DNA of 64,000 nucleotides from positions 1,944 through 65,943 of the forward strand of contig CAZCAV010000005.1 of the NCBI GenBank assembly GCA_964496795.1, read 5' to 3'. Position 1 is the stretch's first letter. The number at the start of each line of letters is the position of its first letter. A program made the translations under genes and the position numbers. Origin of the DNA: an uncultured Oscillospiraceae bacterium (lineage in GTDB: Bacteria > Bacillota > Clostridia > Christensenellales > CAG-138). Below are positions 20,964-61,897 of the stretch, one piece after another. The notes under the pieces were generated by a model, which made no database searches, was not told where the DNA came from, and worked only from the letters and a program-made list of their open reading frames with translations.

Positions 20964-21039
20964 TGGTGGAGCATAGGAGACTCGAACTCCTGACATCCAC
21001 ACTGCCAGTGTGGCACTCTACCAACTGAGCTAATGCCCC
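20964..21039 (-). tRNA. tRNA-Ala (anticodon GGC), CCA encoded
   Basis: Minus-strand 76-mer GGGGCATTAGCTCAGTTGGTAGAGTGCCACACTGGCAGTGTGGATGTCAGGAGTTCGAGTCTCCTATGCTCCACCA. The 7-bp acceptor stem carries the G3:U70 alanine identity pair. Anticodon stem CCACA/TGTGG, loop CTGGCAG. T-arm AGGAG-TTCGAGT-CTCCT. Confidence 0.95.
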
Positions 21040-24589: not shown

Positions 24590-24817
24590 TCCTCGAATAA
24601 AAAGGGTTCCCTGTCCAAAAGGGACGGGAAACCCGTGGTGCCACCCTGATTGAGCCTAAGCTCCGCTCTGTCCCCGATAACGCAGGGTCTACGCGTCGCG
24701 GTACTGCCGCGCGGTTCACGGGCGTCCTTCCCCATCACTGCGTCCGCGCGGCTTGCAGCAATTGCCGCGCTCTCTTAAAGGACGCCTGTGATCGGTACTC
24801 TTCCGATCAGCACCTTT
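24590..24817 (-). promoter_or_regulatory. T-box leader (tRNA-sensing riboswitch) controlling hisS-aspS
   Basis: Minus strand carries the conserved T-box sequence AATCAGGGTGGCACCACGGG (24651-24632). It overlaps the 5' arm of an imperfect GC-rich terminator hairpin GGGTTTCCCGTCCC-TTTT-GGACAGGGAACCC plus TTTTTATT (24634-24596). Upstream AGAGTA and AAGAGAG motifs are typical of Stem I. Confidence 0.85.
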
Positions 24818-24823
24818 TCATAC

Positions 24824-27387: not shown

Positions 27388-29559
27388 TTAATGATTCATG
27401 CGGTACACCTCGTGTACGCACTTCAGTTTTTTGAGATTGCGAATGATCACATTCAGCTGTTCCGTGTTTGTCACGGCAAAGGTCATCTCAACAATATAGC
27501 TGCCGGCCTGATCCGCGTGTCCGCTGATGCTCTGTATGCTGATGTTCAGTCCGGAGAGCTGCATGGATATTTCAGAGACGGTGCCGGGCAGATCGTCGGC
27601 GACGACCTGCACGGAAGCGTTGAAGGAGCTGCGCGTATTGATCGCCCAGGCCACTTCAATAATGCGGTCCATATCGGTCTGTAAATTGGATACGTTGCTG
27701 CAGTCGGCGCGGTGCACGGAAACGCCGCGGCCGCGCGTAATGTACCCTATGATCGGATCGCCGGGCAGCGGGTTGCAGCAGTTGCCAAAGCGGACCGCCA
27801 TGCCGGGATCGCCATGCACAATGATCCCGTTGACAGGTACGGAGCCCTTGCTCTCCTCGTGCGTCTCGCTGCGCTCAATCCGCGCGGCAAGCTGCTCCTG
27901 CTTCTCCGCCTTCTTATGCAGCTCCATAAGCTTATGGAGCACCTGGCCGGACGAAACGCCTCCAAAGCCAATGGCGGAATACAGATCGTCGAGGGACGAC
28001 ATGTTCAAACGTTTCAGGATCTCGTTATAGTACTCCGGTTTTAAAAGCGTTACAAGGGATTGGGTCTGACGCTTGGCGGTATCCTCGAGCATTTCCCGTC
28101 CGCGCTGAACGTTCTCCTCACGGTTCTCCTTTTTAAACCATTGACGTATCTTGTTGCGTGCGGATTGGGTCTTGACGATCTTCAGCCAGTCGCGGCTGGG
28201 GCCCTGCTGCGCGTTGGAGGTTATGATCTCCACAACGTCGTTGGTTTTGAGCTTGTAGTCCAGTCGAACGAGCGCGCCGTTCACCTTGGCACGCTGGCAG
28301 TGATGGCCGATGTTGGTATGAATTCGATAGGCAAAGTCCAACGGCGTCGAGCCCTTGGGTAAGTCGATGATCTCGCCGCGCGGCGTCAGGACAAAGACAT
28401 ATTCACCTAAGAAGTCCTTGAGAATATTGTCAACGAATTCCTTGCTGTCCTCCGTGGTATCCTTGGCCTCGACTATCTGCCTGAGCCAACTCGTTTTTTT
28501 ATCCAGAAGGCTCTGTACCGTCCGGCCCTCCTTGTACATCCAATGCGCGGCAATGCCGTATTCCGCCGTCCTGTGCATCTCCGCCGTACGGATCTGAACC
28601 TCAAAGGGGATGCCGTTATCCGCCAAAAGTGTCGTGTGCAGCGAACGGTACATGTTTGGCTTCGGAGTCGCAATATAATCCTTGAAGCGGCCCGGCAACG
28701 GCTTCCAGCCGGCATGCAGCACGCCGAGAGCCGCATAGCAGTCGTTGATGGAATTAACGATCACCCGAATGGCGATCAGGTCATAAACCTCGCTGATACC
28801 GGAATTCTGACGCTGCATTTTGCGATAGACGCTATACAGATGCTTGGGGCGGCCGCTGATGCTCGCCTCGATACCGGCCTCTTTCATGGATTCGCTGATC
28901 TTGAGCATGGCGTCGTTGAGCACCTCGGCTCTCTCCGCCTGCTGCTGCTCAAACTGCCGCTTGATGTCGGCGTATTCGGCGGGCATCAGATACATGAAGG
29001 ACAGATCCTCCATTTCGCCCTTGAGTGCGCCCATGCCAAAGCGATGCGCCAAAGGCGCGTATACCTCAAGCGTTTCTTTAGCCTTTCTGGCACGCTTCAG
29101 CGGCGTGCAGTAGGCGATGGTCCGCATATTGTGCAGACGGTCGGCAAGCTTGATGATCACGACGCGCACATCCGCCGCAATCGCCAAAAACAGCTTGCGC
29201 AGATTCTCGGCCTGCTCCTGTTTTTTGGTAATATAGGTCTGCTTTCCTGAAATGGTCAGCTTGGTTACGCCATCGACCAGCTTGGCCACCTCTGGGCCGA
29301 ATTCCTTCTCGATATCCTGAATGGTGACGTTGTCGCCATCCTCCACCACATCATGCAGCATGGCGGCAACAACGCTCTCGGCGTCCATGCCCATATCCAT
29401 GACGATCTTTGCAACCGCCTCGGGGTGAATATAATATGGCTCGCCGGATTCGCGCAGCTGACCCGCGTGAACGCGCTTGGCAAATTCCATCGCCCGTTCA
29501 AACATTTGTGTCTGCTCCGGCGTATACTGCTCAGAAAATCGCTCCAGCAGCTTATCCAT
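27388..29559 (-). CDS. relA: Bifunctional (p)ppGpp synthetase/hydrolase RelA/SpoT homologue
   Basis: HD domain (HPEAVA...LHDVVED), synthetase domain (YRSLHTTL), plus TGS and ACT regions. Start placed at MDKLLERF (ATG 29559) with GGAGG 8 nt upstream. Confidence 0.95.
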   Translation of the reverse strand: MDKLLERFSEQYTPEQTQMFERAMEFAKRVHAGQLRESGEPYYIHPEAVAKIVMDMGMDAESVVAAMLHDVVEDGDNVTIQDIEKEFGPEVAKLVDGVTKLTISGKQTYITKKQEQAENLRKLFLAIAADVRVVIIKLADRLHNMRTIAYCTPLKRARKAKETLEVYAPLAHRFGMGALKGEMEDLSFMYLMPAEYADIKRQFEQQQAERAEVLNDAMLKISESMKEAGIEASISGRPKHLYSVYRKMQRQNSGISEVYDLIAIRVIVNSINDCYAALGVLHAGWKPLPGRFKDYIATPKPNMYRSLHTTLLADNGIPFEVQIRTAEMHRTAEYGIAAHWMYKEGRTVQSLLDKKTSWLRQIVEAKDTTEDSKEFVDNILKDFLGEYVFVLTPRGEIIDLPKGSTPLDFAYRIHTNIGHHCQRAKVNGALVRLDYKLKTNDVVEIITSNAQQGPSRDWLKIVKTQSARNKIRQWFKKENREENVQRGREMLEDTAKRQTQSLVTLLKPEYYNEILKRLNMSSLDDLYSAIGFGGVSSGQVLHKLMELHKKAEKQEQLAARIERSETHEESKGSVPVNGIIVHGDPGMAVRFGNCCNPLPGDPIIGYITRGRGVSVHRADCSNVSNLQTDMDRIIEVAWAINTRSSFNASVQVVADDLPGTVSEISMQLSGLNISIQSISGHADQAGSYIVEMTFAVTNTEQLNVIIRNLKKLKCVHEVYRMNH

Positions 29560-29585
29560 ACTCTCACCTCCTTCAGTAACGGTAT

Positions 29586-29615
29586 GAAAAAGAATCAACG
29601 GCGTCCCGTTGATTC
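29586..29615 (-). terminator. Rho-independent terminator after apt
   Basis: Minus strand GAATCAACGG-GACG-CCGTTGATTC (perfect 10-bp stem), followed by TTTTTCAT. Confidence 0.75.
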
Positions 29616-29631: not shown

Positions 29632-30147
29632 TCAAAACACCATGACAGACTGTACGTCGTAGCCCTTCAGAAGCGCGCGGCCGTCAAACTCAGACGCCAG
29701 CTCTATGGCAAAACGCACGCCGACCACGTTGCCGCCAGCCTGCTCGACCAACTTGATCGTGGCCAGCGAGGTGCCGCCGGTGGCCAGCAGATCGTCGACA
29801 AATACGACGTTCTGTCCAGGCTGAATCGCATCCTCGTGGATCTCCAGAACATCCGTTCCGTATTCAAGCCCGTATTCATACCGAAGCGTTTTGCAGGGCA
29901 GCTTGCCCGGCTTTCTCGCCACAATGAAGCCGGCATGCAGCGCGTAAGCAAGGGCGGAGCCGATCACAAAGCCGCGCGCCTCCGGCCCGATCACCAGATC
30001 CACCCGGCGGTCGCGCAGCGATTCCGCGATCGTATCAATCAAAGCGCAATAACCGTCGGCGTCCTTTATCAGCGTGGTGATGTCGCGGAACATAACGCCC
30101 TGTATCGGAAAATCCGGTATGCTGCGAATCTTTTCTTTTAAATCCAT
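29632..30147 (-). CDS. apt: Adenine phosphoribosyltransferase
   Basis: 171 aa. IPDFPIQGVMFRDIT and the PRPP motif VVFVDDLLATGGT. Confidence 0.95.
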   Translation of the reverse strand: MDLKEKIRSIPDFPIQGVMFRDITTLIKDADGYCALIDTIAESLRDRRVDLVIGPEARGFVIGSALAYALHAGFIVARKPGKLPCKTLRYEYGLEYGTDVLEIHEDAIQPGQNVVFVDDLLATGGTSLATIKLVEQAGGNVVGVRFAIELASEFDGRALLKGYDVQSVMVF

Positions 30148-32165
30148 GAAGAATCCTCCCGTTCGTCTTTTGATTGTAAACGCCGGTACAGCCGGCTGTC
30201 CGTCAGAGCACGCTTCTGTACGCCAGGCGACAGAGTGACGAGCGCTTCATGGCAGCTGAAGAAGCCAAGCTCCAAAAATACCAGCAACGCGCAAAGCGCC
30301 GGCCGGTCAAAGCGCGCTAAAAGCTCCTCAACACGGCATCCGCCGGTCCCGACGCATTTGCGAAGCTGCAGATACATGCGGCGCATGGAATCGCCGTCAA
30401 AGCGGGCCGCTCCGCCGTCAGAAGCGTATGGAAAATCCAAATTCTCCATACAAAAGCTATTATACAAAACATTCATGAAAAAATCATCAAAAAGTTTTTG
30501 GCTGGTCTCTGCCGCAGTCAGGACCAGCTCCACGCTCTCCATGCCACGGTAAGTATGAATGCTCGGACGAACCAGTATGCTCAGGCTGTCGTCCGCGTTC
30601 GTTTTGAATTCCTCCAGGCGCTCGCCAAAGCCAAAGCCAACCAGTCGCAGGGAGGCGCTGCCATCGCCTGCGCGCGCGCTGATATGGCTTCCGTCATGTC
30701 CAATGCCTCTCAGCTCCGAAAGCCGTACACCGTCGATACGATAGACCGGCTCCGGATTTCCCTCGCCAAACGGTGCAAGGCATTTTAGCTCCGCGACAGC
30801 GGAAAGCGTCAGCTCCGACAGGCAAAGCCTCTCGTCATAATCCTTCGCCAATACAAAATCGGAGGCGTCGTAGTGCAAACGCAGGAACTCCCGAAAATCG
30901 GCTGAAAACGTCTCAAAGGCCTCGCGCGCCATCGTTATGCCCGCCGCGCCCTTATGCCCGCCAAAACGCATAAAGTGCTTGCTGCAGGCGCTCAGGGCGG
31001 CGTACAGGTCAATCCTGCCGGCGCTCCTCCCCGAGCCGCTAAGTATTCCGTCTCCGGCGTCGGAAAACAGTATAACCGGACAATGATGCCGCTCGCTCAT
31101 ACGGGAGGCCACAATGCCTATCACGCCCACGTTCCAGCCCGTGGAGCTGAGCAGTATGGCGCGTCTGACGCCTTCGTCTTCAAGCGAAAGCATCCCTTCC
31201 GCCTCGGCGTAGATCTCCGCTTCTATCGACCGCCGCTTGGCATTGACGCCGTCAAGCTCGGCAGCCAACGTCTCCGCAGCATGTCGATCCTCCGTCGTCA
31301 GCAGGGAAACGCCTCGCATCGCGTCGCCAAGCCGACCGGCGGCGTTCAGACGCGGTGCCAGCAGAAAAGCCAGTGTGGAAGCGTCCACGGCGTTATCTCC
31401 GTTGCCAGCAGCGTGCAGAAGCGCGTTAAGACCCAGATTGTCCTCTATCCAGGGGATCCCGCGCGCCACCACCGCGCGGTTGTCTCCGGTGAGCGGCACC
31501 ACGTCCGCGACTGTGGCCACAGCGGCCAGCGGCAGCCAGCGGCTCAGTCTTGTATCGCCGCACAGCGCCCGCGCAAGCCGAAGCGCCACGCCCGCGCCGC
31601 ACGCGCCGTCCTCCGGTACCACAACGGCTGAGCAATCCGGAAGCCGCTCGGGTCTGCTGTGATGATCCGTGACGATCACATCCATGCCAAGCGAAGTGCA
31701 AAGCGCGACCTCCTCCAAGGCCGATATGCCGTTGTCCACCGTTACGATCAGATTGACGCCACGCGCATGGAGCTTGCGGACGGCCTCTTCATGAAGGCCG
31801 TAGCCCTCGCTGTGGCGGGACGGGATATAAGCCTGCACCCGCTCCGAATAAACGGAAAAGCAGTCCAGCAATATGGCTGTGGCGCATACGCCATCCGCAT
31901 CATAGTCGCCATAGACGCAGATGTTCTCGTCCTCCGTAAACGCCTTCCGCAGCCGTTCGAGCGCGGCGCGCATGTTGGGCATGGCAAAGGGATCGCTCAG
32001 TTCCAGCTCCTCCGGATGGAGAAACCGCTCCGCATCCGAAGCCTCGGTCAGTCCGCGCCGGATCAGCGCCCGTGCGGTCAACGGCTGAATGCTCAGCGCG
32101 CCGCACAGCGTTTCGACGGTCGTCGGATCATATTCTCCCGAATAGGCGCAGTGGAACCCGTTCAT
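30138..32165 (-). CDS. recJ: Single-stranded-DNA-specific exonuclease RecJ
   Basis: DHH motifs VYGDYDADGVCAT, VTVDNG and VIVTDHH. Start placed at MNGFHCAY (ATG 32165-32163), which forms an ATGA overlap with the scfB stop. Confidence 0.9.
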   Translation of the reverse strand: MNGFHCAYSGEYDPTTVETLCGALSIQPLTARALIRRGLTEASDAERFLHPEELELSDPFAMPNMRAALERLRKAFTEDENICVYGDYDADGVCATAILLDCFSVYSERVQAYIPSRHSEGYGLHEEAVRKLHARGVNLIVTVDNGISALEEVALCTSLGMDVIVTDHHSRPERLPDCSAVVVPEDGACGAGVALRLARALCGDTRLSRWLPLAAVATVADVVPLTGDNRAVVARGIPWIEDNLGLNALLHAAGNGDNAVDASTLAFLLAPRLNAAGRLGDAMRGVSLLTTEDRHAAETLAAELDGVNAKRRSIEAEIYAEAEGMLSLEDEGVRRAILLSSTGWNVGVIGIVASRMSERHHCPVILFSDAGDGILSGSGRSAGRIDLYAALSACSKHFMRFGGHKGAAGITMAREAFETFSADFREFLRLHYDASDFVLAKDYDERLCLSELTLSAVAELKCLAPFGEGNPEPVYRIDGVRLSELRGIGHDGSHISARAGDGSASLRLVGFGFGERLEEFKTNADDSLSILVRPSIHTYRGMESVELVLTAAETSQKLFDDFFMNVLYNSFCMENLDFPYASDGGAARFDGDSMRRMYLQLRKCVGTGGCRVEELLARFDRPALCALLVFLELGFFSCHEALVTLSPGVQKRALTDSRLYRRLQSKDEREDSSWI

Positions 32166-33493
32166 GGCTCCTGCTCTTTTAGGCGGACGCCAATGGCGCA
32201 CTCAATACGTTTTTTCATCAGCGCGCAGCTCATCTCATGCGGCTCCATCAGCCCGCCGCCGTACAGGCAGGCGTTCGCCATGCAGCCTCCGCCGCAATAG
32301 TACTTGGCCCAACAGCGTTTGCAGCGCTCCTTCGTGAGCACGCTGCACTGTGCAAAGAGGTCGCGCTTGGCTCCATCCAGCTCAGGCTGCGACACATGCC
32401 CCAGTTTCCACGCGGTCATGCCTACGAACTGATGGCAGGGGTAAATATCGCCCTCGGGCGTAACGGCCGCGTACTCGCAGCCGGCGCCGCAGCCGCGCAC
32501 GCGTTTGCGCAGGCAGGGCCCGCCCTCCAAGTCAATCATGAAATGGAAAAAGTTGTACCAGCTATCCTTGCTTTGGCGCGCCACGATATACTGCGCGGCC
32601 AGACGATCGTATTCCTCCATGATTCGCGGCAGATGGGCGGGAAGAATCGCGTAGGGGCTGTCGTCCGGAAGCACGACCGGCTCGATGGATATCTGGTTAA
32701 AGCCCGCCGCAGTCAGCGCGTGCACATCCTCTGAAAAATCCAGATTATTGCGCGTGAAGGTGCCGCGCACATAGTACTCCCGATCGCCGCGCCCCGCGAT
32801 CAGCTTTTGCGCGTTGCGCAATATCAGATCGTAAGAGCCCTTGCCGTTGACGGTCGGTCTTAAGGCGTCGTGAATTTCCCTGCGGCCGTCCAGGCTGACG
32901 ACCACATTGAACATTTCCGCGTTGATAAAGGCGATCGCATCGTCGTCGAGGGCCACGCAGTTGGTAGTCATGGTAAAATGGATCTCTTTGCCATGCTTTT
33001 TTTCAAGCTGGCGGCCGTAGCGTACGATCTCCTTGCACACCGGCAAATTCATCAGTGGCTCGCCGCCAAAGAGATCGACCTCCAAATGCTTTCTGTCCCC
33101 GCAGTGCGCTATCAGAAAATCAAGCGACGCGCGTGCGATATCCGCGCTCATGAGCATACGCTCGCCATGAAAATCGCCGGTGGATGCAAAGCAGTATTTG
33201 CACCGAAGATTGCAATCGTGCGCTACATGCAGACACAGGGACTTGATCACGCGCTCGCTCTGCTCGTCCGTTAAGATCGGCGCAGGGGAATCGAAGGCGC
33301 CCTCCTTTGAAAGCGTACTGAATTCTTCTAATATCTCGGCGGCATCCGCTTTTAAAACGCCGCATTCATACGGATCTTCGCCGCGCTCCAACGCCTTGGC
33401 TACACGAAAGGCAGACTCGTCCAGTCGATGTATTGCGCCGCTTTCAATGTCTATCACATAGTATTCATCCTGAAAAGCTAAAGCGTGTATCAA
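32162..33493 (-). CDS. scfB: Radical-SAM/SPASM thioether-forming maturase of SCIFF (ScfB)
   Basis: Radical-SAM motif HDCNLRCKYCF and C-terminal SPASM Cys clusters (CGAGCEY..., CKRCWAKYYCGGGC). Directly downstream of the SCIFF precursor. The track ORF begins at TTG 33517. TTG 33493 has the better Shine-Dalgarno (AGAGGAA 6 nt upstream). The start is uncertain. Confidence 0.85.
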   Translation of the reverse strand: MIHALAFQDEYYVIDIESGAIHRLDESAFRVAKALERGEDPYECGVLKADAAEILEEFSTLSKEGAFDSPAPILTDEQSERVIKSLCLHVAHDCNLRCKYCFASTGDFHGERMLMSADIARASLDFLIAHCGDRKHLEVDLFGGEPLMNLPVCKEIVRYGRQLEKKHGKEIHFTMTTNCVALDDDAIAFINAEMFNVVVSLDGRREIHDALRPTVNGKGSYDLILRNAQKLIAGRGDREYYVRGTFTRNNLDFSEDVHALTAAGFNQISIEPVVLPDDSPYAILPAHLPRIMEEYDRLAAQYIVARQSKDSWYNFFHFMIDLEGGPCLRKRVRGCGAGCEYAAVTPEGDIYPCHQFVGMTAWKLGHVSQPELDGAKRDLFAQCSVLTKERCKRCWAKYYCGGGCMANACLYGGGLMEPHEMSCALMKKRIECAIGVRLKEQEP

Positions 33494-33515
33494 AATACGT
33501 TCCTCTTTCACAGAC

Positions 33516-33541
33516 AAAGGAAGGCCTTGTGGCCTTCCTTT
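33516..33541 (-). terminator. Intercistronic hairpin (attenuator/terminator candidate) between scfA and scfB
   Basis: Perfect 11-bp stem AAAGGAAGGCC / GGCCTTCCTTT with a 4-nt loop, 20 nt after the scfA stop. The U tail is weak. Confidence 0.55.
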
Positions 33542-33560
33542 TAAGTCAGCTCAGCGTAAG

Positions 33561-33704
33561 TTATTTGTCCTGCTTGCCGCACTTCTGGTTGGCAACGGTG
33601 CAGGAGGTCTTGCAGGCGGACTGGCAGCTCGCCTGGCATTCGCCGCATCCCGTATTTCTGCCGGTTTTCAGGCAGGGCTTCTGTATGGTCTTCATGTGTT
33701 TCAT
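33561..33704 (-). CDS. scfA: SCIFF (six-cysteines-in-forty-five) ranthipeptide precursor
   Basis: Not in the ORF track (47 aa). Minus-strand translation MKHMKTIQKPCLKTGRNTGCGECQASCQSACKTSCTVANQKCGKQDK. GGAGGA lies 7 nt upstream of the ATG. The GCGECQ.SCQSACKTSCTVANQ.C core matches the SCIFF family as I remember it. Confidence 0.9.
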   Translation of the reverse strand: MKHMKTIQKPCLKTGRNTGCGECQASCQSACKTSCTVANQKCGKQDK

Positions 33705-33736
33705 TTGCCGTTCCTCCATAATGTCTGTACGATATC

Positions 33737-33765
33737 AGTATACACGCTTACGGCTCAGAGCGCAA
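33737..33765 (-). promoter_or_regulatory. Sigma-A-type promoter candidate for scfA
   Basis: Minus strand TTGCGC (33765-33760), 17-nt spacer, TATACT (33742-33737). Overlaps the last codons and stop of ackA. Confidence 0.4.
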
Positions 33766-34957
33766 GCTCCGCCGTATCATGTGCGATGGTCATCTCCTCG
33801 TCGGTCGGGATCACAAACACCTTGACCCGGCTCTCCGGTCTGGAAATGACGACCTCCTGACCGCGCGGGCAGCTTTCGTTGTATTCATAATCCGGTACGA
33901 TGCCCAAAAACTCCAGATCGCGCATGACCTCCGCGCGTACATGCCGGTCGTTCTCGCCCACGCCGGCCGTAAACACCAGCGCGTCCAACCCGCCGAGCGC
34001 CGCCGCATAGGAGCCGATATACTGCTTGACCTTGTAGATGAACATATCCAGCGCCAGCGCTGCGCGTGCGTTCCCCTCCGCGGCGGCGGTTTCCAGATCG
34101 CGGAAATCGCTGGATATGCCGGAGATGCCCAGCATGCCGCTCTTCTTGTTCATATAGGTATCCATTTCACGCGGCGTCATGCCGGTACGCTCCATAAGGA
34201 AGGGCAGTATCGCCGGATCGACGCAGCCGCAGCGCGTTCCCATCGGCACGCCCTCGAGCGGCGTAAGGCCCATAGAGGTGTCGACGCATTTTCCGTCCCT
34301 GACGGCGCTGAGGCTGGAACCATTGCCAAGATGCGCCGTAACGATGCGCGTTCCCTCCGCCTTTCCGCCAAGCAGCGCCACAGCACGGCCCGCCACATAG
34401 CGGTGCGAGGTGCCGTGAAAGCCGTAGCGGCGCACACGGTACTTTTCGTAGGTCTCATAAGGCAGCGCATACATGAAAGCCTTGGGCTCCATGCTCTGGC
34501 CCCAGGCCGTATCGAACACGGCGACCATCGGCACGCCGGGCATAGCGGTCATGCAGCCGCGAATGCCCATGAGATTGGCGGGATTATGCAGCGGCCCGAG
34601 CGGAATGCACTCCTCGATGGCCTCGAGAACCTCGTTGTTGATGAGCGCCGGCGCTGAAAAACGCTCGCCGCCATGCAGCACGCGGTGACCGACGGCCTTG
34701 ATCGAGCTCATATCGGGCAGTATGCCGACGTCCTTGTCCACCAGAATATCCAGCACCAGACGAATGGCGTCCTCATGATTCTTCATGGGCGATTCACGCT
34801 TGATTTCCTGGCCGCCGGTAGGCTTGTAGCCAATAAACGATCCCTCGATGCCTATGCGCTCGCAATTACCCTTGGCAAGCACCGATTCGCTGTCGATATC
34901 AATGAGCTGATACTTCAGGGAGGAACTGCCGGCGTTGATGACCAAAATATACGTCAT
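33755..34957 (-). CDS. ackA: Acetate kinase
   Basis: 400 aa. MTYILVINAGSSSLKYQL start, HRVLHGG, GFHGTSH. Confidence 0.97.
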   Translation of the reverse strand: MTYILVINAGSSSLKYQLIDIDSESVLAKGNCERIGIEGSFIGYKPTGGQEIKRESPMKNHEDAIRLVLDILVDKDVGILPDMSSIKAVGHRVLHGGERFSAPALINNEVLEAIEECIPLGPLHNPANLMGIRGCMTAMPGVPMVAVFDTAWGQSMEPKAFMYALPYETYEKYRVRRYGFHGTSHRYVAGRAVALLGGKAEGTRIVTAHLGNGSSLSAVRDGKCVDTSMGLTPLEGVPMGTRCGCVDPAILPFLMERTGMTPREMDTYMNKKSGMLGISGISSDFRDLETAAAEGNARAALALDMFIYKVKQYIGSYAAALGGLDALVFTAGVGENDRHVRAEVMRDLEFLGIVPDYEYNESCPRGQEVVISRPESRVKVFVIPTDEEMTIAHDTAELAL

Positions 34958-34969
34958 GATTCGTTCTCC

Positions 34970-35968
34970 TTACAGATTTTGCGCCTGAACGGCGGTGATA
35001 GCTACCACAGAGACGACATCCTCGATGCTGCATCCGCGGGAAAGATCGTTAATGGGATATTTGAAGCCCTGGCAAATGGGCCCGACGGCCTCCGCGCCCG
35101 CAAGCCGCTGCACAAGCTTGTAACCGATGTTCCCCGCCTGAAGATCGGGAAAAATCAGCACGTTCGCCTTTCCTGCTACGGCGCTGCCGGGCGATTTGAG
35201 CCTGGCAACCTTTTCCACCAACGCGGCGTCCGCCTGCAGTTCACCGTCTGCGGCCAGCTCAGGCGCCTGCTCGTGCACAAGTCTTGTCGCCTCCGCCACC
35301 TTATCCACGAGTTCATGCTTGGCACTGCCCTTTGTGGAGAAGGACAGCATAGCCACGCGCGGTTCAAGGCCGCAGAGAGCCTTTCCAGTGGCCGCCGAGG
35401 AAATGGCAATGGCCGCTAGCTGCTCCGCCGTTGGATTCGGATTGACCGCGCAGTCGCCGAATATCAGCACGCCATCGTCGCCGTAAGCCTTGTTTGGGAC
35501 CTCCATGATGAAACAGCTTGACACAACAGAAATGCCTTTCGCCATCTTGATGATCTGAAGCCCGGGCCGCAGCGTATCTCCGGTAGTGCAGACAGCGCCC
35601 GCCACCATGCCGTCCGCGCGGCCCTCGCGGATCATCATGGCCGCAAAAAACAGGGGATTCTTCATGGTTGCGGCTGCCTTTTCAGGCGTGACGCCCTTTT
35701 CCCTGCGCAGCTCATAAAACAGCGATGTATACCTTTCCAGATCCGGATCGCTGTCCGGATCGACAATGCCAACCCCGGCGAGTGAAACGGAAAATTTTTC
35801 CGCAACCTCACGGATCGCCTCCGGCTTTCCAAGCAGCGTTACGTCCGCGAGTCCCTCCGCTATGATGCGGGCCGCAGCCTGTACCGTACGCTCCTCCGTA
35901 CCCTCCGGAAGCAGAATATGCTTTTTGTCTGATTTTGCCTTTGCCTTGATTTGATCCATTAATGACAT
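34970..35968 (-). CDS. pta: Phosphate acetyltransferase
   Basis: Start placed at MSLMDQIKAKAK (ATG 35968) with GGGAGG upstream. The HILLPEGTEERT motif follows. The 48 upstream codons in the track ORF have no Pta similarity. Confidence 0.93.
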   Translation of the reverse strand: MSLMDQIKAKAKSDKKHILLPEGTEERTVQAAARIIAEGLADVTLLGKPEAIREVAEKFSVSLAGVGIVDPDSDPDLERYTSLFYELRREKGVTPEKAAATMKNPLFFAAMMIREGRADGMVAGAVCTTGDTLRPGLQIIKMAKGISVVSSCFIMEVPNKAYGDDGVLIFGDCAVNPNPTAEQLAAIAISSAATGKALCGLEPRVAMLSFSTKGSAKHELVDKVAEATRLVHEQAPELAADGELQADAALVEKVARLKSPGSAVAGKANVLIFPDLQAGNIGYKLVQRLAGAEAVGPICQGFKYPINDLSRGCSIEDVVSVVAITAVQAQNL

Positions 35969-35989
35969 GAGATAACGCCTCCCAGTAAA

Positions 35990-36022
35990 TTTCTTGTGGA
36001 TTATACCATAATCCACAAGAAA
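35990..36022. promoter_or_regulatory. 33-bp perfect palindrome (candidate operator) in the pta / tmcAL divergent promoter region
   Basis: TTTCTTGTGGATTAT-ACC-ATAATCCACAAGAAA: 15-bp perfect arms with a 3-bp centre. It overlaps the minus-strand TGGTATAAT (36008-36000) and lies just upstream of the plus-strand TGGTATACT (36024-36032). Confidence 0.6.
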
Positions 36023-36059
36023 ATGGTATACTCGTTTCAGGAAAGTATCGGAGAAGTTT

Positions 36060-37265
36060 ATGCGCGTCGTAGGCATTATCGCGGAATACAATCCGCTGCA
36101 TAATGGGCACATGTATCATCTTGAGCAGGCCAAAGCGCTTTCGGGCGCAGAGTACTGCGTCGTGGTCATGTCCGGTAACTTTGTGCAGCGCGGCGAGACG
36201 GCCTGCACAGATAAGTTTACGCGCGCAGAGTGGGCCCTGCGGGTGGGAGCCGACCTTGTGCTGGAGCTGCCGAGCGTATTCGCCCTCTCCAATGCTGAAC
36301 GCTTCGCGCTTGGCGGCGTAAGGACGCTCCGCGGCACAGGCGTTGTGACCGATCTTGCCTTTGGCTGCGAGACCGGCGACGTAACGATACTCTATCAGTT
36401 GGCCGATATCATTTCCAGCGAGCCGCCGCTGTTTCGCGAGGCGCTGAGGCAGCGTCTGTCCGAGGGCAAATCCTATCCGCGCGCACGCTTTGAAGCCTTG
36501 GCCGATTACGGGGTGCCGGATCATCTTCTGGAGGCCATTCTGCAGCCAAACAATATTCTCGCCATAGAATACCTGCGTGCGCTCTCGGCCGGCGGCGCCG
36601 ACGACATCCGGCCGCTGCCAGTGACGCGCATCGGTACGGATTACCATTCGGACGAGATCCACGGCGCATACGCAAGCGCCTCCGCTATCCGCAAGGCTCT
36701 TAAGGAAGGCCGCCGCGAGGCGCTGGATACCATGCCCTCCTTTATCGGCGGGCCGCTGATGTTTGACGAGCAGTGCGTCATACCGGAATCCGCCGTCGGC
36801 GACATGACCCTCTATGCCCTGAGAAAACTGAATCCGGACGCGCTGCGCGCCATTCCGGATGTGAGCGAGGGCTTTGAAAACGTCATTGCGCGCGCCGCAC
36901 GCAGCGTATCCTCGCTGCCGGAATTCTTCGAAGCCGTCAAGAGCAAGCGCTATACTCTCGCGCGCTGCAAGCGCATTGCGGCAAGCGCGCTCCTGGGCAT
37001 CACGCTCGATCAGGTGCACGCCACGATCAAAAGTCCGGAGGGCTGCTATCTGCGTGTTTTGGGCTTTCAGAAAAAAGCGCGCCCGCTGCTGTCGCAGATT
37101 GCCAAATGCGCGCGCGGCGCATGGATACTTCGCAACAGCGACATACAGGACGCGCCGCTCATCGTACAAAAGAATCTGGAGACCGATATGCTCAGCACCG
37201 ATATCCTTGCCTACGCCGTCAAGCGGGACATGCGCCGCGATCTCAGCGGCCCGGTAATCCTATAA
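36060..37265 (+). CDS. tmcAL: tRNA(Met) cytidine acetate ligase (YlbM/TmcAL family nucleotidyltransferase)
   Basis: 401 aa. N-terminus MRVVGIIAEYNPLHNGHMYHLEQAK is typical of YlbM/TmcAL. Confidence 0.85.
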   Translation: MRVVGIIAEYNPLHNGHMYHLEQAKALSGAEYCVVVMSGNFVQRGETACTDKFTRAEWALRVGADLVLELPSVFALSNAERFALGGVRTLRGTGVVTDLAFGCETGDVTILYQLADIISSEPPLFREALRQRLSEGKSYPRARFEALADYGVPDHLLEAILQPNNILAIEYLRALSAGGADDIRPLPVTRIGTDYHSDEIHGAYASASAIRKALKEGRREALDTMPSFIGGPLMFDEQCVIPESAVGDMTLYALRKLNPDALRAIPDVSEGFENVIARAARSVSSLPEFFEAVKSKRYTLARCKRIAASALLGITLDQVHATIKSPEGCYLRVLGFQKKARPLLSQIAKCARGAWILRNSDIQDAPLIVQKNLETDMLSTDILAYAVKRDMRRDLSGPVIL

Positions 37266-61621: not shown

Positions 61622-61897
61622 ACAATGCCGCGCACCCGCTTCTTGACCAAACGCCTCCGGGCGATGCTCCGGCAGGCGGCTCCCTTCAGGTTACCCCGCG
61701 GCACACCGGTCCATCCGTTTAATGCTGCTTCCGTCAGGACCTGACATGGTTCGCGGCGGCCGGTTGCACGGGACCCGACTCTCAACGCTCCTTACCGGTA
61801 TCCGGCCCCACAGGCGGCGGCCTCAAAGCGGGAATTCAGCCCTGCTGTAGCGGATTGCAGGTACAGGGCACCGCTAGCTCCCCGCTTAGCGCGGCTT
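61622..61897 (-). ncRNA. ffs: Signal recognition particle RNA (large, Bacillus-type, with Alu domain)
   Basis: The minus strand carries ...GCTAAGCGGGGAGCTAGCGGTGCCCTGTACCTGCAATCCGCT.CAGCAGGGC.GAAT.CCC (Alu domain, near-identical to my memory of B. subtilis scRNA). It also carries the universal domain-IV motif CATGTCAGGTCCTGACGGAAGCAGCATTAA (about 61724-61750). Terminal helix GCCGCGC (61895-61889) / GCGCGGC (61633-61627). TATAAT at 61907-61902. The ends are approximate. Confidence 0.9.

Follow-up and report, generated by a model that had tools for sequence, protein, structure and literature searches.

Ranthipeptides, the radical non-α thioether peptides, carry a cysteine sulfur joined to the β- or γ-carbon of an acceptor residue, and SCIFF ranks among the best-conserved systems of ribosomally made, post-translationally modified peptides in Clostridia. 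To our knowledge, the mature structure and the role of SCIFF are unsettled, and only one thioether has been demonstrated. The closest described systems are CteA/CteB (thermocellin) of Clostridium thermocellum (PDB 5WGG and 5WHY) and Tte1186a/Tte1186 of Caldanaerobacter subterraneus, which likewise belongs to the SCIFF/ScfB family. The leader of CteA (residues 1–18) binds the RRE of the maturase CteB as an added β-strand, and the open iron site of auxiliary cluster I can take up a cysteine of the peptide as a ligand (PMC6231123, PMC8326336). The SCIFF product contains one S-Cγ thioether, running from Cys32 to Thr37 or from Cys32 to Thr34 (PMC8326336, PMC8172795). In Tte1186a, the donor cysteine (Cys31/32) coordinates the iron of auxiliary cluster I ahead of C-S bond formation, and when selenocysteine occupies the donor position (Sec31) it binds this iron in the Michaelis complex and leads to a Se-C bond (PMC10177961).

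We analyzed a 64-kb window, by which we mean the whole stretch of DNA under study (GC content 57.6%), around a short reading frame on its minus strand. This frame, scfA, occupies positions 33561..33704 including the stop codon; it runs from an ATG at 33704-33702 to a TAA at 33563-33561 and comprises 47 codons plus the stop. A Shine-Dalgarno sequence, GGAGGA, lies 7 nt 5' of the ATG (33712..33717, minus strand), and GGAGG is kept upstream of scfA in related loci. Both elements had been proposed in an earlier, sequence-only reading of this DNA and are recovered by direct reading. The translation, MKHMKTIQKPCLKTGRNTGCGECQASCQSACKTSCTVANQKCGKQDK, contains 7 cysteines in total. It scored 66.3 bits against the SCIFF model TIGR03973 (curated cut-off 50) and 70.4 bits against PF13165 (gathering score 27), with E-values of 1.7e-18 and 1.1e-19, so that the proposed SCIFF identity holds with both models. 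The peptide has the approximately 45-residue layout of the family, with an MKHxKT N-terminus and a C-terminal six-cysteine core of the form CxxCxxxCxxxCxxxCx6C, and its core pattern is identical to that of 76 related loci. The core extends from Cys20 to Cys42 (CGECQASCQSACKTSCTVANQKC; 33579..33647, minus strand) and includes Cys31, Thr33 and Thr36, which correspond to Cys32, Thr34 and Thr37 of CteA. These three residues and the six core cysteines are unchanged in 32/32 species-level loci while synonymous codons vary, Ala30 being encoded by GCC, GCA, GCG or GCT and Thr33 by ACC, ACG, ACT or ACA. Invariant amino acids combined with synonymous variation indicate that scfA is translated and under purifying selection.

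The same gene is present in public data. A collection of 15 billion proteins already contains the exact 47-residue product as a called gene, which makes the earlier description of scfA as unannotated doubtful, and peptides from its 90% cluster carry the NCBI name 'six-cysteine ranthipeptide SCIFF'. A locus 100% identical to the scfA region was found in the independent SRA assembly SRR8925725, on a 4.9-kb contig (L081) that encodes proteins identical to those of the window. The window itself holds only one SCIFF-like motif. Two plus-strand reading frames that overlap the site (33433-33825 and 33696-33860) are mechanical and unsupported, and the match of the minus strand to the family models together with its codon conservation decides against them. 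A database match of 3239 residues (P0138) was discarded as a low-complexity artefact from which the SCIFF motif is absent.

The maturase gene, scfB, begins 67 nt 3' of scfA on the same strand and encodes 443 residues from a TTG start (32162..33493, minus strand). The Shine-Dalgarno sequence AAGAGGA (33501..33507, minus strand) lies 7 nt before this TTG and 8 nt past the hairpin described below. The TTG at 33493 is most likely the true start, and not the mechanical ORF start at 33517, because the ScfB model begins there and the identical SRR8925725 contig carries a 443-residue call. ScfB scored 574.5 bits against TIGR03974 (cut-off 425), in line with the sequence-only identification of the radical-SAM/SPASM neighbor as ScfB; its score against NF040492, the 'not_ScfB' orphan exception model, was 470 bits and thus below the cut-off of 855. 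Residues 1–440 align with the solved maturase CteB (PDB 5WGG, E = 7e-138), and the Pfam Radical_SAM and SPASM domains both match. Among 71 aligned ScfB sequences, the radical-SAM CX3CX2C motif (C94/C98/C101) is invariant, and so are eight C-terminal cysteines (C327, C335, C353, C391, C394, C400, C404 and C423). By sequence alignment only, residues 1–85 form an N-terminal RRE that corresponds to CteB residues 6–98. The freyrasin system PapA/PapB is similar in that a radical-SAM/SPASM maturase with an RRE installs cysteine thioethers, but freyrasin has six Cys-X3-Asp S-Cβ links whereas CxxxD repeats are absent from the window peptide. A PapB-type assignment was rejected for this reason and because the NF047865 score, 267.1 bits, falls below the cut-off of 340.

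Compared with CteA, the window peptide belongs to the same length class and has the same MKHxKT start, the six-cysteine core, the donor cysteine and both threonine acceptors, and the radical-SAM and SPASM cysteines of CteB are conserved in the window ScfB. The two peptides differ in the length of the leader (19 residues in the window, 20 in CteA), in residue 11 (Cys in the window, Thr in CteA), in the end of the leader (NTG versus KGG) and in the core (CQASCQ and TVANQK versus CQTSCQ and TVGNQS). Unlike CteB, the window ScfB has clade-specific residues that include Cys153 and Cys179. The donor Cys31 of Tte1186a is also conserved in the window; Tte1186a, for which a leader cysteine has not been reported, is biochemically characterized, whereas the window locus is known from its sequence. 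Nearer in sequence are the entries named 'six-cysteine ranthipeptide SCIFF' from Christensenella sp., Firmicutes HGW-9 and Clostridiales MAGs, which share the 90% cluster of the window peptide, its 47-residue layout, Cys11 and the pta-ackA-scfA-scfB-recJ-apt-relA synteny. However, these peptides are only 72–83% identical to that of the window and their ScfB proteins at most 67%. Because the best ScfB match among GTDB species representatives is also 67%, none of these representatives is close to the window organism.

The sequence-only reading had described the seventh cysteine as an extra feature of this copy and had raised the question of whether it is lineage-specific. Its position in the leader (Cys11, codon TGC, 33672..33674, minus strand) and the total of seven stand, but it is not special to this copy. 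We extracted the SCIFF gene from 75 of 80 related loci and found Cys11 in all 31 loci whose ScfB is 50–67% identical to that of the window; they belong to Christensenella, Christensenellaceae, 'Oscillospiraceae', and Bacillota and Clostridia MAGs. Outside this clade, it occurred in none of the 44 sampled loci (Lachnospiraceae, Peptoniphilus, Sporanaerobacter and others), where residue 11 is mostly Thr, Asn or Ser. The Cys11 loci form one clade in a neighbor-joining ScfB tree, and within the ScfB clade of the window the residue is present in 32/32 species-level loci, as invariant as the core cysteines and lineage-specific. The neighbors of Cys11 vary among these 32 loci: position 9 is K/Q/R/S/G, position 12 I/M/L/V, position 13 K/N/R and position 14 A/T/S. 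On these counts, the seventh cysteine is a trait of the clade and not a peculiarity of the window copy. We searched the literature for reports of a seventh or additional cysteine in SCIFF and found none.

Two wider samples place this trait within the family. Among the nearest homologue clusters (the best 120 of 2,315 matches), 102 have Cys11, which always lies 11 residues from Met1 although the leader may be 17, 18, 19 or 20 residues long. The other 18 clusters have T, V, S, G, N, A, R or E at this position, and only one of them has another leader cysteine (Cys14). Because Cys11 can be lost from the same type of leader without a compensating cysteine, it is dispensable. In a diversity sample of cluster representatives at 50% identity (1,205 matches, with 125 of the top 150 parsed), 28 peptides have Cys11, 80 have no leader cysteine, and about 17 have a leader cysteine at position 10, 13, 14, 15, 16 or 17, position 14 being recurrent. 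Examples of leader Cys14 in lineages without Cys11 are FKCNSS, FGCSAN and LKCSVSGG. The presence of leader cysteines at positions 13–17 in lineages that do not have Cys11 suggests repeated independent gains. Judged from these samples, leader cysteines are common across the SCIFF family, and one large branch is characterized by Cys11. Two database proteins, P0136 (108 residues) and P0252 (92 residues), contain two tandem SCIFF modules, each with leader and core, in a single ORF, and in P0252 serine replaces two core cysteines in each module.

We also searched the ScfB alignment for positions that accompany Cys11. Fifteen positions are clade-specific, and only one of them falls in the RRE (residue 5, F versus Y). 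Cys153 is present in 77% and Cys179 in 81% of the Cys11 clade and in 0/40 sequences outside it. Both lie in the radical-SAM barrel, where C179 replaces the Gly of the TTNG motif. No obligatory ScfB partner that co-varies with Cys11 was found in this alignment, in which any signal is confounded by phylogeny.

What Cys11 does is the weakest part of our interpretation. Cys11 sits in the part of the leader that would be expected to contact the RRE, in place of the Thr, Ser or Asn of other SCIFF peptides, and it most likely helps in recognition of the leader, has a structural role or is a spare thiol, and does not define a change of chemistry. We favor such a role because Cys11 keeps a fixed N-terminal register, is followed by a conserved hydrophobic residue 12, and is lost without compensation in some lineages. 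Its invariance, however, exceeds what a merely tolerated leader residue would need, and this invariance throughout the clade, together with the repeated gains of leader cysteines, leaves room for an active role. As an active seventh thiol, Cys11 could be a second thioether donor or a ligand of auxiliary cluster I or another metal, and the topology of the clade's product would then differ from that of thermocellin-type SCIFFs. The 32/32 conservation, equal to that of the core cysteines, fits such a role, as does the occurrence of leader cysteines at positions 10–17 in other SCIFF lineages, at least one being present in approximately 45 of the 125 parsed representatives. The crystal structure of CteB is compatible with it as well, because a non-donor cysteine of the peptide, Cys21, ligates Aux I there, indicating that non-donor thiols can reach the cluster (PMC6231123, PMC8326336). 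In addition, no protease or exporter gene is present in the scfA-scfB operon, and the SCIFF 'leader' may therefore stay on the peptide. Against this, the register of Cys11 is tied to the N-terminus and not to the core, 18 of the 120 nearest clusters have lost it uncompensated, and no conserved acceptor stands at the positions that the known donor-acceptor spacings would predict (K/N/R at residue 13, K/A/Q at residue 16). An active Cys11 would also have to work without an obligatory ScfB partner, Cys153 and Cys179 being found in only part of the clade. We therefore consider an active seventh thiol unlikely. Rather improbable, too, is the broader proposal that the seven-cysteine SCIFFs form a functionally distinct subclass in which the extra thiol is chemically engaged, through a second thioether or as an Aux I or metal ligand, and the leader is left uncleaved. 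If that were true, SCIFF would not be a secreted signal but would act inside the cell as an intact metallo- or redox peptide whose gene is expressed together with recJ, apt and relA. Our preferred reading of Cys11 is still that of a recognition or structural residue or a spare thiol.

The DNA upstream of scfA contains a conserved promoter-like pair. In the window, a -35-like box, TTGCGC (33760..33765, minus strand), lies within the last codons of ackA, and a -10 box, TATACT, preceded by GTG, lies at 33737..33742 on the same strand. When 95 nt upstream of scfA were compared, the arrangement CTTGCGC(T)-17 nt-GTG-TATAAT/TATACT was found in 32/32 clade-A loci, with GTGTATAAT or GTGTATACT at a constant distance from the scfA ATG in every one of them and with diverged flanks. 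The pair persists in clade-A loci in which ackA is not upstream of scfA. A generic promoter and terminator scan detected neither this promoter nor the hairpin at the locus; it missed the promoter because the -35 box matches only 3/6 positions, and the hairpin because the T-run is missing. From its conservation, we infer that the -35/-10 pair is scfA's own promoter.

The intergenic region between scfA and scfB holds a hairpin whose stem has 11 perfect base pairs and whose loop has 4 nt (33516..33541, minus strand); it reads AAAGGAAGGCC-ACAA-GGCCTTCCTTT from 33541 to 33516. The sequence-only reading had correctly described a perfect hairpin here; the distance from the scfA stop to the stem, which it gave as 20 nt, is 19 nt. 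The hairpin has a minimum free energy of -24.2 kcal/mol (z = -3.6 versus dinucleotide shuffles). Of 76 loci, 92% have a strong simple hairpin 3' of the scfA stop, whereas 16% of 110-nt windows drawn at random from these loci contain one (Mann-Whitney p = 5e-29). The sequences of the stems vary from clade to clade, and within the close clade relatives have an A:T pair where the window has G:C. In many relatives, a T-run is added 3' of the stem; in the window, no U-run follows the hairpin, which makes terminator activity uncertain, and a scan of the whole window with Rfam gave no match at the scfA locus. The scfB start lies only 22 nt beyond the hairpin, too close for a promoter to fit between them, so that scfB is probably expressed by read-through. 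The hairpin may act as a partial terminator or as a stabilizer of the mRNA 3' end.

These features also bear on the extent and reality of the scfA gene. An in-frame ATG at 33719 gives the longest ORF of this frame, a 52-residue product beginning MEERQMKHMK..., and some database entries of relatives have similar MEE... extensions (for example, P0028 and P0030). This start is very improbable: the ATG overlaps the Shine-Dalgarno sequence (ATGGAGGA) and lacks a ribosome-binding site that would serve it, the SCIFF models start at MKH and not at MEERQ, and the collection of 15 billion proteins contains the 47-residue form but not the 52-residue one. That scfA is a chance or decayed, unexpressed ORF, for which nothing but its small size speaks, is effectively refuted by model E-values of around 1e-18, by residues that stay invariant in 32 species-level loci while their codons vary synonymously, by the conserved promoter, Shine-Dalgarno sequence and hairpin, and by the intact cognate maturase gene downstream.

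The surrounding genes all lie on the minus strand: pta (34970-36112) and ackA (33755-34957) upstream of scfA, and recJ (30138-32165; 453.9 bits against TIGR00644), an apt-like phosphoribosyltransferase gene (29632-30147) and relA/spoT (27388-29598) downstream of scfB. The ATG of recJ overlaps the scfB stop in an ATGA at 32162-32165, which places the two genes in the same operon and couples scfB translationally to recJ; recJ in turn overlaps the apt-like gene by 10 nt (30138-30147). A peptide-modification gene, scfB, thus sits inside a housekeeping operon, with relA/spoT next after recJ-apt. The full order pta-ackA-scfA-scfB-recJ-apt-relA is kept in the 21 closest loci, and the order scfA-scfB-recJ-apt-relA is kept in a wider set of loci; most Lachnospiraceae have an insertion in it.

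We hold with high confidence that the locus is a bona fide scfA-scfB pair in a conserved housekeeping neighborhood of an uncultured clostridial lineage (Christensenellales/Oscillospiraceae-related), with a mechanism expected to be like that of CteA/CteB. By analogy with CteA/CteB and Tte1186a/Tte1186, scfA would be transcribed from its own promoter at the ackA end, and the hairpin would stop or stabilize most transcripts so that precursor mRNA exceeds maturase mRNA, with read-through past the hairpin allowing expression of scfB-recJ-apt. The N-terminal RRE of ScfB would then bind the leader (MKHMKT...) as an added β-strand, and Cys31 would coordinate auxiliary cluster I through its thiolate at the open iron site. 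A 5'-deoxyadenosyl radical would take a hydrogen from the Cγ of Thr33 or Thr36, after which the thioether between the cysteine sulfur and the threonine Cγ would form. Because the donor and acceptor residues of CteA are conserved here, the same chemistry is the default expectation, and a mature thioether in the scfA product is predicted from homology to CteA and Tte1186a.

Elsewhere in the window, Rfam matches comprise a T-box leader (24617-24819, minus strand; 96.7 bits versus a gathering score of 93). A bacterial large SRP RNA (61628-61894, minus strand; 190 bits) and one tRNA gene (20967-21039, minus strand) are also present. A 453-residue ORF with a TTG start (35808-37169, minus strand) overlaps pta, has no Pfam match and is antisense to a HIGH_NTase1 (TmcAL-like) gene at 36060-37265 on the plus strand; it is probably spurious.

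The physiological role of SCIFF had been called unknown in the sequence-only reading. This is nearly right, with one exception: according to two reviews, a knockout study (Chen 2020) connects SCIFF with the expression of quorum-sensing and sporulation genes (PMC8326336, PMC8102284). The locus described here is a correctly identified member of a known and widely annotated family in a new organism, and it is not a new kind of system. The details that it adds are a leader cysteine fixed in a large branch of Christensenellales-like and related MAGs, a conserved promoter and a conserved downstream hairpin for scfA, and the translational coupling of scfB to recJ-apt-relA. The organism is uncultured, and the question of what SCIFF does is therefore not directly answerable from these features; Cys11, the promoter and hairpin, and the coupling of scfB do provide cheap, testable handles for SCIFF biology.
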